Part shown: piece after piece, positions 1 through 5,177 of the stretch
How the letters are laid out: every line of letters begins with the position of its first letter
How positions within the stretch are numbered: the first letter of the stretch is position 1
Virus record (IMG/VR): IMGVR_UViG_3300035169_000077
Span: 34,688 to 98,687 of that record
DNA: 64,000 nt
Reading direction: 5' to 3' (one strand)
Origin: a virus
Notes under the pieces: model-generated
Told to the model about the DNA's origin: nothing
Seen by the model: the letters and a program-made list of their open reading frames with translations, nothing else
Databases searched by the model: none
Translations under genes and position numbers: made by a program

Positions 1-312
1 CGGCGCTGTGCATGGTCCCGATCGCGGGCCCGCTGGCTTACGTCTTCTGGGTCGACAACGGGATGCTCACGTCGTCGCTGCTGGCCTGGGTTGAGGTGTC
101 CGGCCCGGTGCTGTCCACGCTGGCGATGCTGCGGCTCTGCTGGGTGTTCGCGCGTATCCACCGGGACGGCAACGGGCACGGCGGGCCTCGGGGCAACGGT
201 GACGGGTGATGCCCGCCGGGCACTGTGGCCCTTGCTCATCGCCGCCATCACCGTGACAGCGGTAGGGGTGGCAGTCCTCATCGCACTCGTCAGCCACTAG
301 CAAAGGGGCCTG

Positions 313-858
313 ATGGCACTCGCGGACCTGTCCGTCCTCGCCGCGCGGAAGAACGGCGGCTCGTTCCCCACGGGCTACCCGTCGTCGCCGCTCACGTTCT
401 ACAGCCCGGTCGACGATCTCCATGGCGCGCTCCTCGACGTGATGAACGCCGCGACGTCCAGCCTGGTCGTGGTGATGTACGGGCTGGATGATGACGAGCT
501 GGTGAAGCTGCTCCACGAGAAGCTCGACGATGAGCACTGCTTCGTGCAGCTCACCCTCGACTCCTCCCAGGCTGCCGGGAAGCACGAGGCGGCGCTGCTC
601 GCCAAGGACGTCTTCCCGTCGAACACGGTCGCCATAGGTCGCAGCGAACGGGGCGCGATCATCCACCTGAAAATGGTGGTCGCGGACGGAATCGACGTGA
701 TCACGGGGTCGACGAACTGGTCAGAGTCCGGGGAGTCGCTACAAGATAATGCCCTGATCATCATCAGGGACGCCCATGTCGCGGCAGAGGCTCGCACTAG
801 AGCGGACATCATTCACCAGACGATTCTCACGAGGGCCGCTGCCCTGCACGCCTCCTAG
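313..858 (+). CDS. Phospholipase D-family (single HKD, Nuc-like) protein
   Basis: HLKMVVAD (HxKxxxxD) followed by GSTNWS; AAGGGG upstream. Confidence 0.88.
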
Positions 859-1339
859 CAACTGCCCGCCGCTCGTTCTCCCGCTTGGTCACCGGGTCAA
901 GGTGCTCGGGATTCACGCATGCCCGGACGCAGCAGAGGTGATCTAGGTGCTTCCCGGTCGGGATCGGGCCGACGTGCTGTTCGTACATCCAGCGGTGCGC
1001 CCGGAGGGTCTTGCCGTCTCGCCGTAGGGCGCCGTAACCGGTTTTGAGCATCGCTCGCGCCCAGATCCAGCAGGGCGTTTCGTAGCCCATGTCTTCGACT
1101 CGGTACAGCGGCTTGGTGTGGATACGCAGGAGTCCTTCGGATATAGCCCGGCGCGCCTCAGGCGAAAAGACCCTGCCGGTACCGGCGTCAGCGATAGCTG
1201 CCCGGTGCTCCGGCGTCAGCGATCGCCCGCGCATCTTCGATGCGCGGAGTTCCCGGATCTCTGGATTGGTCCACTGATGTCCTCGCAGGTAACGACCGCG
1301 AGTCGGATGTCCGCCGCAACCGCAAAGGCAATCTGACAT
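827..1339 (-). CDS. HNH homing endonuclease with NUMOD3-like DNA-binding repeats
   Basis: CLCGCG N-terminus, [12 protein letters not shown] / [13 protein letters not shown] repeats, CWIW...GYG...AHR...LDHLC...[13 protein letters not shown]; TATGCT 6 nt before ATG 1339. Confidence 0.9.
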
Positions 1340-1355
1340 GTCAAAAGCATACCAG

Positions 1356-2369
1356 CTAGCCGTCATTCGCAATGCCTTGGTGATCATCAGGGACCCGCAC
1401 GTGGCCGCTGAGGCGCGGACGCGGGCGGACATGATCCACCAGCATGTCCTGACGGCCGCGCGCCGGTAACTCCGCCTTGGGCTGCCTGCCCGAAGCCATC
1501 AATGCCCGGTCAAGGCACTCCGCGTAGTCGGGGGCGATCAGGTCGAACGCGGACAGGCCATTGCCGAACCAGTAGTCGTCCCAGTTCGCCGGGTCCATGC
1601 GCAGGCCGCCTAGGCTGCCGCGAAGGCCGGCCATCCCCAGTTCCCACTGCACGGGGCGGGGAAGGCCCCAGAACAGGTCCCGCGCCTCCTGCTCGCGGTG
1701 CTCGTCGCGGGCTTCCTCGTCATGCTGCGCCCATTCTTCCGGGGCCTCCCGCGCCCATTTCGGCCTCAGGTCGGTGCCCTCGGGCGGCTGCCATGCGGCC
1801 GCCCTGGGGTTCGGGAACTGATCGGCCGCCGAGTAGGACAGGACAACCGGCTCGTCATCGCGGGACCGGAGGAACGCGGTCACGTCCTCCCATGACTCAT
1901 GGCTTGGCCGGCCGCACCGCTCGCGGTAGCCGGTGTTGCGGCGGAACGTCCCCGCGTCCAGGCCCTCGTCGATCATCTCGGCGAGCCATGCCCGGTCGGC
2001 CCCCTCGCACCAGCAGTGGATCTCAGCCTGCCCGGCGATGCGGGCAGCGAGCCTCAGTGGGTTGTTACTGCCGGCGGCTGCCATCGCGGTGTTCAGCAGC
2101 AGCGTGAGCGAGTCGATCTCGCAGCCCTTCCACCACAGGACAGGCTCCGAGATGCGCAGCAGCGTCTCTACCGACTTCAGCCACGCGTCATCGTCACGGA
2201 ACCGCAGCCCCGGGTAGGGGTCGGGGGCGAGTTCGCGGCACAACGCGATGTGGCTCGGCATGTCGAGCACCGCAAGGGCGGCGTCCTTCACCAGGTTGTG
2301 CAGGTGATGGTGCTCGCCGCCCCAAAGCTCCGCGTCGCCCGACGGCGAGTGAAAGTAGACCCTGCTCAT
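1356..2369 (-). CDS. Hypothetical protein
   Basis: Long ORF; likely start MSRVYFHS at 2369, preceded by TAGGCT-N7. Confidence 0.7.
1371..1469 (+). pseudogene. Displaced duplicate 3' end of the PLD gene
   Basis: Translates [32 protein letters not shown], 23/28 identical to the PLD C-terminus starting at 748. Confidence 0.9.
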
Positions 2370-2665
2370 GCCGGCAAGCCTAGGCGTTGAGAAGCGCGTT
2401 CGGACGGCTGCGACTGCGGGAAGAAGGCGGCACCGGGTGAGCCTCGCTGACGTCCTGTGGGCCGGTGCCGCTCTCCTGGCCCTCGCGGTCCTGACGGCGG
2501 TAGCCGACTGGCTCCGGGGTGGCCTGTGACCGCGAACGGCCAGTGGTGGCTCTGCCCCAACGAGCCGCGATGCCCTCACGCCGCCGTGGTGCACGACATC
2601 GAGGACTTCGACGACGAAACCCCGCGCTGCTGCGCCGAGGGCTGCGACTGCGGAAAGCGGGCCTA

Positions 2666-2896
2666 GTGTCGATCCTCCGGGACCTGTTCGGCCCGGGGAC
2701 GTGGGGTGCGGGTGGCAATCTCGCCGCCGCGCCGATCCTCGCGGTGATCAGCGGCGGCGTGGCGTGGCTGCTGCGGCACAAGATCGGCCGGGGACTCGCC
2801 GCCTGGTGGGCAAAGCACCACGGGCCGCACGCCATAGCCCAGCACCGTGAGGCGCTGCGGCAGCACGAGGAAGCCAAGCGGAGGGACGCGCAGTGA
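2666..2896 (+). CDS. Small membrane protein, candidate holin
   Basis: One hydrophobic segment plus basic tail; overlaps the endolysin start (GTGA). Confidence 0.5.
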   Translation: MSILRDLFGPGTWGAGGNLAAAPILAVISGGVAWLLRHKIGRGLAAWWAKHHGPHAIAQHREALRQHEEAKRRDAQ

Positions 2897-3651
2897 GCAT
2901 CACGATGTTCGACACGATCACCGAGTCCGCGTGGCCATCTGACCCGCAGGCGGTCCTCGGCTACGTGGACGGCCACGTAGGGGACCAGCCGGACTGGGCT
3001 TATGTTCAGCACCGGTTCCCGAACGCCTTCCACCTGTCGATCGCCCTGGACCCCGCGCACGACGCGATGGCCCTGGACATCGAGACGGGGGCGGCTTCCC
3101 CGTCGTCGGCGGTCGCCTGGTACGAGCGGCAGAAGGCCAGGGGTGTCGCCCGCCCTTGCCTGTACGCCTCCGCCTCCCTGATGGAGGCCACCATCATCCC
3201 GGTAGTCCGCGCGGCCAGGTTCCCCCGTGACCAGGTGCGGCTGTGGTCGGCGCACTACACGCACTCGGCTCACATTTGCGGGCCGTCATCCTGCGGGCTG
3301 ACGTCGGTCGCCGTGGACGGCACCCAGTGGACTGACCGGGCGTACGGCCGGAACCTCGATCAGTCGCTCCTGCTCGGCGACTTCTTCGGCGCGGCACCCA
3401 AGCCCCCGCCCGGGCATCCGTCGCCGTGGCCCGCTGGCACGGTACTCCGTGAGGGGGACTCCGGCGCTGCCGTCCGCGCCTTGCAGACGGCACTGAGCGA
3501 CTCCGGCATCAGGGGAGTACGGGGCATCACCGTTGACTCGGTGTTCGGGCAGCAGACCCTGACCGCTGTCCGGAACTTCCAGGCGGATAAGGGGCTGGCG
3601 GTAGACGGCATCGCCGGGCCTCAGGTTCGCGCAGCTCTCGGCATCCGGTGA
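2893..3651 (+). CDS. Endolysin: glycoside hydrolase (GH25-like) domain plus peptidoglycan-binding domain
   Basis: ALDIETG, CLYAS, LWSAHY, GTQWT; C-terminal LREGDSGAAVRALQ...FG..T..AVRNFQ...GLAVDGIAGP. Confidence 0.85.
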   Translation: MSITMFDTITESAWPSDPQAVLGYVDGHVGDQPDWAYVQHRFPNAFHLSIALDPAHDAMALDIETGAASPSSAVAWYERQKARGVARPCLYASASLMEATIIPVVRAARFPRDQVRLWSAHYTHSAHICGPSSCGLTSVAVDGTQWTDRAYGRNLDQSLLLGDFFGAAPKPPPGHPSPWPAGTVLREGDSGAAVRALQTALSDSGIRGVRGITVDSVFGQQTLTAVRNFQADKGLAVDGIAGPQVRAALGIR

Positions 3652-3932: not shown

Positions 3933-4498
3933 TGACCGGAATCCCGCTCCGGATCGCCGAGCCGACAGGCCGCTACCAGCGGAGGCTCCGCCGGTTCACC
4001 TACGGGTCGAAGTCGGAATGCCCCGGATACCGGTACGGCCATGACGGGTCCGCCGTGATCGGCGAGGTACCCGGGGCTGAGCATGAGCCGGTTCGCGGCG
4101 ACAGCTGGCCGCACGACGATCCCCGCTGGCCTGCCGCGTGCGAGCGGTGCGGCCACCAGTTCGCGGACGCCGATGAGTGGCAGCGCAGCGACGACGAGGT
4201 GTTCAGGCTCCCCGACGGCACTGAGTTCGCCTTCACGGGCTCCCTCGGGATGGTCGCGCCTCCCGGGACGATGGTCCGCGCCGCCTGGTACGACGGGCAC
4301 GCTGGCCAGCCGGGCGAGTCCTGGCTGATCGCGCTCCCCGACGGCGGCGACTGGATAACCACCCAGGTCGCCAAGGGCGGGGGCTTCTGGACCGTGACGG
4401 GCACGGCACCGAACCTGACCGCGACGCCCTCGATCTTCCACAACGCCCCAACTGGGTGGCACGGCTGGCTGAGGGAAGGGGAGCTGGTTAGCGCATGA
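3932..4498 (+). CDS. Hypothetical protein, DUF6527-like C-terminus
   Basis: WTVTGTAPNLTATPSI...WHGWLREG; TGATG coupling. Confidence 0.6.
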   Translation: MTGIPLRIAEPTGRYQRRLRRFTYGSKSECPGYRYGHDGSAVIGEVPGAEHEPVRGDSWPHDDPRWPAACERCGHQFADADEWQRSDDEVFRLPDGTEFAFTGSLGMVAPPGTMVRAAWYDGHAGQPGESWLIALPDGGDWITTQVAKGGGFWTVTGTAPNLTATPSIFHNAPTGWHGWLREGELVSA

Positions 4499-4935
4499 GG
4501 CAGGCAGCACCGGATCCGGCACCGCTCGCCTACCTGGTGGAGCGGCTCTCGTACCGGCCCGGCTGGACGTTCAAGCTCGCGGACATCGACCGGGGGCAGG
4601 GCAGCGAGGGGCTGACCCTGATCATCACCACGCGCGGGTACGACAGCTACCACCCCGGTCGCGGCGAGAACTACCGGGTCAATCACTACATGCCAGTGCC
4701 GCCGGCCGCGTTCGATCACCGATCCTGGCAGCGATGGCTATTCGACCAGCTCCTCCTTGTCGAGCGGCACGAGGCCATGGAGTTCTTCCGCGTGCACGAC
4801 TCCCCGGGCAGCGAGCATGTCGTCCGCCCCTATGCGCCGTCGCATGGGCCGGGAAATGACCCGTACATCGTCCGGGAGATCGGCACCGGCATGGACCAGC
4901 GGACGTCGTTCCGGGGCGACGTCAACCCCCCGTGA
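4495..4935 (+). CDS. Hypothetical phage protein
   Basis: ATGA overlap with the upstream gene. Confidence 0.7.
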   Translation: MRQAAPDPAPLAYLVERLSYRPGWTFKLADIDRGQGSEGLTLIITTRGYDSYHPGRGENYRVNHYMPVPPAAFDHRSWQRWLFDQLLLVERHEAMEFFRVHDSPGSEHVVRPYAPSHGPGNDPYIVREIGTGMDQRTSFRGDVNPP

Positions 4936-5177
4936 CCATCACCCTGGCCCGCCGGGTAGCAGGCCCCGAGGACCTGGAACTACCGGGCGACTACTGCGGG
5001 CCGCTCCCTGAGCTTGAGGGCCCTGACCTCACCCCGTCCGGCAGGACCGCCGTGTGGCTGGTGGCCCCGGACGGGTCACCGGTACGGCTCGCCTCCCCGC
5101 CGTGGGAGTTCACCGAGGCTGAAGACGGGTCGCTGGAGATCACCGTGGCGGCCGGAACGCCCTCCCCGGCAGCCTGA
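4932..5177 (+). CDS. Hypothetical protein
   Basis: GTGA overlap; end of rightward run. Confidence 0.55.
   Translation: MTITLARRVAGPEDLELPGDYCGPLPELEGPDLTPSGRTAVWLVAPDGSPVRLASPPWEFTEAEDGSLEITVAAGTPSPAA

Follow-up and report, generated by a model that had tools for sequence, protein, structure and literature searches.

A PLD-like gene with two 3′ ends and an antisense HNH gene points to a probable 3′-end-replacing homing element in an uncultured virus

Introduction

In yeast, the WHO unit at FBA1 combines an endonuclease gene with a 3′ end of the target gene that confers resistance (Coughlan et al. 2020, PMC7282813). Homing of the unit gives FBA1 a new 3′ end and shifts the previous one downstream, where it persists as a fragment, with no splicing involved; there is an abrupt change in sequence identity at the cut site, and the downstream fragment can act as a homology arm (PMC7282813). 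Gene hybrids formed by mORFs have been described for atp6 of Allomyces macrogynus and for atp6, atp9, cox2 and nad3 of Glomus (PMC3630166), and duplications of cob and atp6 are known from the fungal mitochondria of Endoconidiophora (PMC6279837). In bacteriophage T4, the free-standing endonucleases Seg and Mob, including MobE of the HNH family, carry out intron-less homing, spreading during co-infection by break repair and co-converting the flanking DNA (PMC2988022, PMC2790892). We found no mention in these two papers of a duplicated, displaced gene end for Seg or Mob.

Here we describe a locus in a 64-kb stretch of viral DNA (the window), which forms the final 64 kb of a 98.7-kb record of an uncultured virus from a single metagenome assembly. 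Like the WHO elements, it combines a sharp change in identity at a fixed point of a gene with a displaced gene fragment, again without splicing. The WHO nuclease, however, is intein-like with zinc fingers and its cleavage has been shown, whereas the window encodes a predicted nuclease of the HNH type; WHO elements act on eukaryotic nuclear DNA in meiosis and the window locus belongs to a phage; WHO genes and FBA1 fragments form clusters, compared with one HNH gene and one fragment in the window; and the window nuclease gene, unlike those of WHO elements, is antisense and overlaps the end of the gene beside it. Membership in the WHO family proper (HO/VDE-like, intein-derived LAGLIDADG proteins with zinc fingers) was rejected because the window protein is an HNH_3 protein, and the resemblance is one of mechanism, not of descent.

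The order of elements in the mORF hybrids, namely foreign C-terminus, endonuclease ORF and native C-terminus, is the same as in the window, and in both cases relatives resemble the native C-terminus more than the inserted one (PMC3630166, PMC6279837). The mORF nucleases differ from that of the window in being LAGLIDADG or GIY-YIG proteins, usually in the same orientation as the host gene and often in frame with it, in organellar genomes. T4 Seg and Mob share with the window a free-standing nuclease gene beside a conserved phage gene, but lie between genes, unlike the window HNH gene. I-HmuI of Bacillus phage SPO1 (PDB 1U3E) resembles the window protein in having a His-Me finger/HNH_3 domain with NUMOD-type DNA-binding modules; its gene lies within a group I intron, whereas the window gene is intron-less and antisense to its host gene. 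The layout has thus already been published for yeast and fungal mitochondria. Our literature search, which is not proof of absence, found no published phage homing endonuclease with a duplicated gene end.

Results

The features of the locus are collected in Table 1. An earlier note on this DNA had reported that the C-terminus of the PLD-like gene (hereafter PLD) occurs twice, with an antisense HNH gene between the copies, and its coordinates hold. The in-frame tail (748-837) and the orphan tail match at 24 of 30 residues (tblastn, E 1e-9), with a Smith-Waterman score of 40 compared with 9.3 ± 1.5 and a maximum of 18 for shuffled sequences. At the DNA level the two are 78% identical over 72 nt and agree at 62 of 84 nt over codons 146-173. 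Sixteen codons differ between them; five of these alter the residue, so that the changes in the in-frame tail, previously read as synonymous, are mostly but not wholly so. All 14 family-invariant tail residues are retained in the hybrid PLD. The orphan is the sole one among 82 PLD loci.

Table 1. Features of the PLD-HNH locus, in window coordinates.
Feature	Position	Strand	Basis
Hybrid PLD-like gene, single HKD domain, 181 aa, unbroken frame	313-858	+	ORF list; PF13091 at 49.3 bits
Native PLD part, codons 1-136, ending at GSTNW	313-720	+	DNA identity; GC3; few window-specific substitutions
Putative foreign replacement PLD 3′ end, codons 137-172, many A/T-ending codons	721-826	+	Substitutions; GC3; polarised differences
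PLD/HNH ORF overlap, 32 nt	827-858	.	PLD codons 173-181 plus stop are the antisense of the last HNH codons
Free-standing HNH_3 (His-Me finger) putative homing-endonuclease gene, 170 aa, N-terminal CxCxC	827-1339 (ATG 1339, stop 827-829)	-	PF13392
HNH 31-nt leader and right insert junction	1340-1370	-	No PLD similarity; PLD similarity restarts exactly at 1371
Orphan native-type PLD tail, codon 146 to stop, apparently displaced by the insert	1371-1469	+	DNA identity to L103/L104; GC3
337-aa protein, unnamed family (context)	1356-2369	-	967 homologues; GC3 0.88

The HNH gene is intact and lies antisense between the two tail copies, its 3′ end overlapping that of PLD. Residues 113-157 of its product match PF13392 at 55.3 bits (cut-off 24.8), and the protein matches PHROG 826/1872, described as 'HNH endonuclease', with an E-value of 4e-31. 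It also carries two weak NUMOD3-like repeats, the NUMOD3 match itself being under threshold. The residues C90, H115, H134, C136, C141, H146 and N155, which are invariant in 45 homologues and comprise the catalytic His/Asn and the zinc-binding Cys/His positions, are all retained. A structure model (pLDDT 86.5) gave I-HmuI (1u3e) as its best fold match, with Z 6.9 and an rmsd of 3.2 Å over 87 residues at 21% identity, and the top five matches were to I-HmuI and I-PpoI (Z 6.0-6.9). These Z values are moderate, so the fold match backs the Pfam assignment and does not stand alone; the value of 6.9 came from a second-look aligner only, the Foldseek E-values were weak, and a sequence profile search of the PDB with the HNH protein did not recover I-HmuI. 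On this sequence and model evidence, the protein appears to be an active homing endonuclease of the free-standing type.

Its closest homologues are P0121, P0122, P0124 and P0125, at 61-78% identity. No cultured relative of the locus was found, as both a megablast of positions 1-3000 and a PLD tblastn against 50,697 cultured phage records were empty, and the HNH matches among these records were all below 60% identity. A metagenome scan with the HNH alignment returned the L023-type lineage described below as the only close match, and a genome-contig scan returned one unrelated MAG. No Rfam family was matched at E ≤ 1 in positions 1-3000, and no sigma-70-like promoter was found in positions 600-2700. 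An intron- or intein-borne nuclease was rejected, given the lack of an Rfam match, the continuous PLD frame and the location of the HNH gene on the opposite strand. We also observed, within the HNH gene, a 17-nt direct repeat at 1182-1226 (94% identical, 28 nt apart, codons about 38-53), placed in the N-terminal half of the ORF where the NUMOD3-like repeats lie.

PLD itself belongs to a family with 1622 hits, none of them from cultured phage, and DNA comparison was made against the two nearest viral relatives that lack the HNH gene, L103/L002 and L104/L003. The PLD body (codons 1-135) is 83.5% identical to L103/L104, and the orphan tail behaves like the body, with 84.5-85.7% identity to the tails of L104 and L103. 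The in-frame tail, by contrast, reaches just 70-74% (73.8% to L104). The orphan is also identical at 30 of 30 residues to the tail of P0002, the closest PLD relative, and fits the family consensus, whereas some substitutions of the in-frame tail, M166I and H170T among them, are absent from every aligned relative. Where a difference can be polarised (L103 and L104 identical), 12 fall on the in-frame branch and 1 on the orphan branch.

The orphan is thus the native tail as judged by sequence comparison, in agreement with the earlier expectation that uninvaded alleles continue directly into an orphan-type tail, which is true of the HNH-less L103/L104 and, at the protein level, of P0002. The converse case, a relative without the HNH gene that carries the tail found at 748-858, was absent among 5.8 billion proteins; the tail-only protein search of this set returned no other carrier of the in-frame tail, and a truncated protein, P0023, has in common only the first 17 in-frame-tail residues, with 1 difference. 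The orphan differs from L103 at 11 codons, 10 of them synonymously, indicating that most of this divergence predates the loss of orphan translation, and displacement of the orphan looks recent. In L002, a small membrane-protein gene follows directly after the PLD stop; in the window, that gene lies at about 2519-2896.

The start of the divergent tract was located by counting window-specific substitutions, defined as positions at which L103 and L104 agree and the window differs. Codons 1-136 hold 19 of them and codons 137-173 hold 24 (Fisher p 2e-7), a roughly fourfold rise from 0.14 to 0.65 per codon. None occurs in codons 123-136, after which they appear at codons 137, 138, 139, 143-146 and onward. 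In control counts with L103 or L104 as the target, the tail excess is absent. A/T-ending codons follow the same course, with 12 in the 37 codons from codon 137 and 12 in the 136 before it. The jump in substitutions and the codon pattern together place the boundary at base 721, codon 137, right after GSTNW. The divergent tract had been taken to begin at base 748; the start is moved upstream to 721, and the proposal of an insertion just after the GSTNW motif is borne out by a foreign tract that begins at codon 137. The boundary sits 27 nt upstream of codon 146, where the duplication starts. From this sharp boundary onward, comparison with the relatives shows an in-frame tail that is foreign, or much faster evolving.

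Third-position composition also separates the two tails, as had been noted earlier from the A/T-ending codons of the in-frame copy and the G/C-ending codons of the orphan. GC3 is about 0.7 in the in-frame tail (0.71-0.72 over codons 146-173/174) and 0.72 in the HNH gene, compared with 0.89-0.91 in the PLD body and 0.90 in the orphan. Among the 82 PLD loci, the difference between tail and body GC3 is lowest in the L023 type (about -0.25) and in the window (about -0.24), followed by -0.14; the chance that two given lineages would fill both lowest ranks is about 3e-4. The low GC3 common to tail and HNH gene fits a single common history or foreign origin for the two, and deliberate respelling would not be required.

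A side observation concerns these codons. The substitution V149I in the window creates a perfect 7-bp minus-strand hairpin at 752-769 (CCCTGAT-GATG-ATCAGGG). It lies about 58 nt beyond the HNH stop and has a somewhat T-rich stretch after it, which makes it terminator-like. A terminator for the HNH transcript, encoded by the A/T-ending codons, was dismissed as the main cause of the codon pattern, given a fold z-score of -0.65, which is not significant relative to shuffled sequences, and no equivalent in L023.

A rival reading is a local duplication with later divergence on the spot. In such a scheme, insertion of the HNH gene near the PLD stop would have duplicated about 100 nt of tail, after which the translated copy would have diverged fast to escape the nuclease, and a GC-to-AT mutation bias would have supplied the A/T-ending codons. 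The nearest relatives of the in-frame tail are indeed found in the window's own clade (the L104 match given above), no donor of the tail was found, and 7 of the 12 polarised in-frame-tail changes are GC to AT. Alleles of this kind are also possible without an HNH gene: the PLD of L112 (3501-4034), which has no adjacent HNH gene, has a mildly low tail GC3 and the codons CAA, AAT and ATT. Local duplication would nevertheless require the selected copy to have gained at least 12 substitutions in 84 nt while the unselected copy gained about 1, and would have to explain why the divergent tract starts upstream of the duplication, why the tail has the GC3 of the HNH gene, and why L023 has such a tract without any duplication. 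We consider this explanation unlikely.

In L112 these codons stand at Q144 (CAA), N146 (AAT) and I167 (ATT), as in the HNH-linked alleles. Its tail-minus-body GC3 is slightly reduced (-0.13), and its PLD is flanked by HNH-like genes, 1.5 kb upstream and 3.2 kb downstream. This PLD could be a resistant allele or an allele that lost its HNH gene.

A second lineage, recovered in three independent assemblies (L004, L023 and L024), encodes an HNH protein 62% identical to that of the window, convergent on a PLD that is 65% identical. The HNH stops of the window and L023 fall in the same alignment column, antisense in PLD codons L172 and T/K173, and in both lineages the PLD C-terminus is lengthened through antisense reading of the end of the HNH gene. 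The A/T-ending tract of L023 runs from codon 138 to about 169, with 14 such codons in 37 compared with 17 in 135, and GC3 is 0.61 in its tail and 0.70 in its HNH gene; the excess divergence of its tail is weak (p 0.02-0.3). The window and L023 thus present the same architecture on two PLD bodies, with tails that are 60.7% identical to each other and also 60.7% identical to the orphan, a level at which a common tail lineage is not demonstrable. The earlier view that the mobile unit consists of a recoded tail and the HNH gene is strengthened by this repetition of tail plus HNH, although 'recoded' proved too strong a word for a tail with residue changes and an HNH-like low GC3. We also observed that, in L023, the 150 nt upstream of the HNH start (1536-1682) hold several copies of a GTGACGGC-like word, which reads VTAG/AVTA in an open frame.

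The HNH gene is absent at the PLD of the nearest relatives of both lineages, L103/L104 for the window and L116/L117 for L023, and its presence among PLD-bearing phages is patchy. When L023 and the window are counted together with 80 viral PLD loci, a convergent HNH gene beside PLD was found in just three lineages. The third, L138, has a different and larger HNH gene (4039-5043, minus strand; 334 aa, with extra C-terminal Cys-rich repeats), convergent and located 4 nt past the stop of a PLD of normal length with normal tail GC3. No orphan tail was found in the stretch of L023 that separates the HNH start from the epimerase gene, or in L138, where scores of 13 and 10, respectively, were within the shuffle range. 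The presence of a different HNH gene at the same place in L138 suggests that the PLD 3′ flank attracts more than one endonuclease family, and such genes seem to have landed repeatedly in this flank.

These loci bear on a further alternative, ordinary phage mosaicism, in which illegitimate recombination between PLD alleles would have produced the hybrid and the HNH gene would be a passenger or otherwise employed, without targeting PLD. The region downstream of PLD is variable among relatives and HNH genes are very common in actinophages, in line with this explanation. Against it, the interlock of HNH and PLD is nucleotide-exact in two lineages with PLD bodies as diverged as those above and missing from their nearest relatives, the arrangement in L138 fits a preferred homing site, and the codon shift co-occurs only with the HNH family of the window and L023. 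Mosaicism appears no more probable than local duplication, and as improbable. An assembly artefact, in which two strain variants of the PLD end were misjoined in one metagenome contig, is very improbable even though the orphan is found in one assembly only, as repeats that are 78% identical are collapsed by assemblers, not created, the neighbouring 337-aa gene keeps an open frame across the orphan to a stop 17 nt short of the HNH start, and the same type of HNH-PLD junction occurs in the three other independent assemblies.

Discussion

The comparisons above suggest that the window locus is probably a 3′-end-replacing homing element. The mobile unit would consist of a foreign PLD tail (codons about 137-173) and the convergent HNH_3 gene that overlaps it. 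During co-infection, the HNH endonuclease would cut HNH-less PLD alleles between GSTNW and codon 146, and the break would be repaired from the HNH-bearing genome, with the left crossover in the conserved GSTNW DNA and a right junction that would be either illegitimate or placed inside an orphan tail carried by the donor. Repair would leave the recipient with a functional chimeric PLD and the HNH gene, and with its former tail cut off downstream of them. The chimeric PLD should then escape further cutting, its replacement end being presumed nuclease-resistant. A donor allele with the in-frame tail was not found, the best DNA match still being the L103/L104 clade.

Among naive tails, conservation at the DNA level is highest at CAG GAC AAC, codons 144-146. 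The Q144 codon, CAG in 92% of the naive alleles, reads CAA in both alleles linked to the HNH gene, and the orphan begins exactly at codon 146. From these alignments we infer that CAG GAC AAC is a candidate target of the HNH endonuclease.

By analogy with the yeast system, it is possible, if somewhat doubtful, that actinophages carry a natural 'cleave-and-rescue' drive on PLD, in which the HNH gene is interlocked, by the antisense overlap of the stop regions, with a nuclease-resistant end, the pair spreads through co-infection, and the stranded tail serves as a right-hand homology arm for the next round. Such a drive would be an independently arisen phage counterpart of the yeast WHO elements with a different nuclease fold. 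The second lineage, which has no orphan, indicates that the orphan is not obligatory, and with an orphan at 1 of 82 loci and none in that lineage, the idea that it acts as a homology arm is conjectural.

Introns and inteins are two ways in which homing endonucleases reside in phage genes; the finding points to a third, in which a spare gene end is carried and splicing is not needed. If general, it would account for some of the local mosaicism, the odd codon usage at phage gene ends and the short 'pseudogene' fragments. The locus may also provide a compact natural model of a cleave-and-rescue element, with a target, CAG GAC AAC, that is predictable from sequence, and the case is made useful by the two diverged lineages with a common architecture and a boundary mapped to the codon.

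The neighbouring 337-aa protein belongs to a family with 967 hits, typically about 250-310 aa in length, and has no match in Pfam, PHROG or NCBIfam. Its closest homologue, P0199, is 73% identical and ends at 298 aa. The last ~40 codons of the window gene run antisense through the orphan tail. L002 has no such gene between PLD and the small membrane-protein gene. The short distance from its stop to the HNH start makes co-transcription possible, and the 337-aa gene may be co-transcribed with the HNH gene. At the HNH start itself, the palindrome CATG (1337-1340) contains a start codon on each strand, that of the HNH gene on the minus strand and that of a 43-aa ORF (1338-1469), which includes the orphan tail, on the plus strand.
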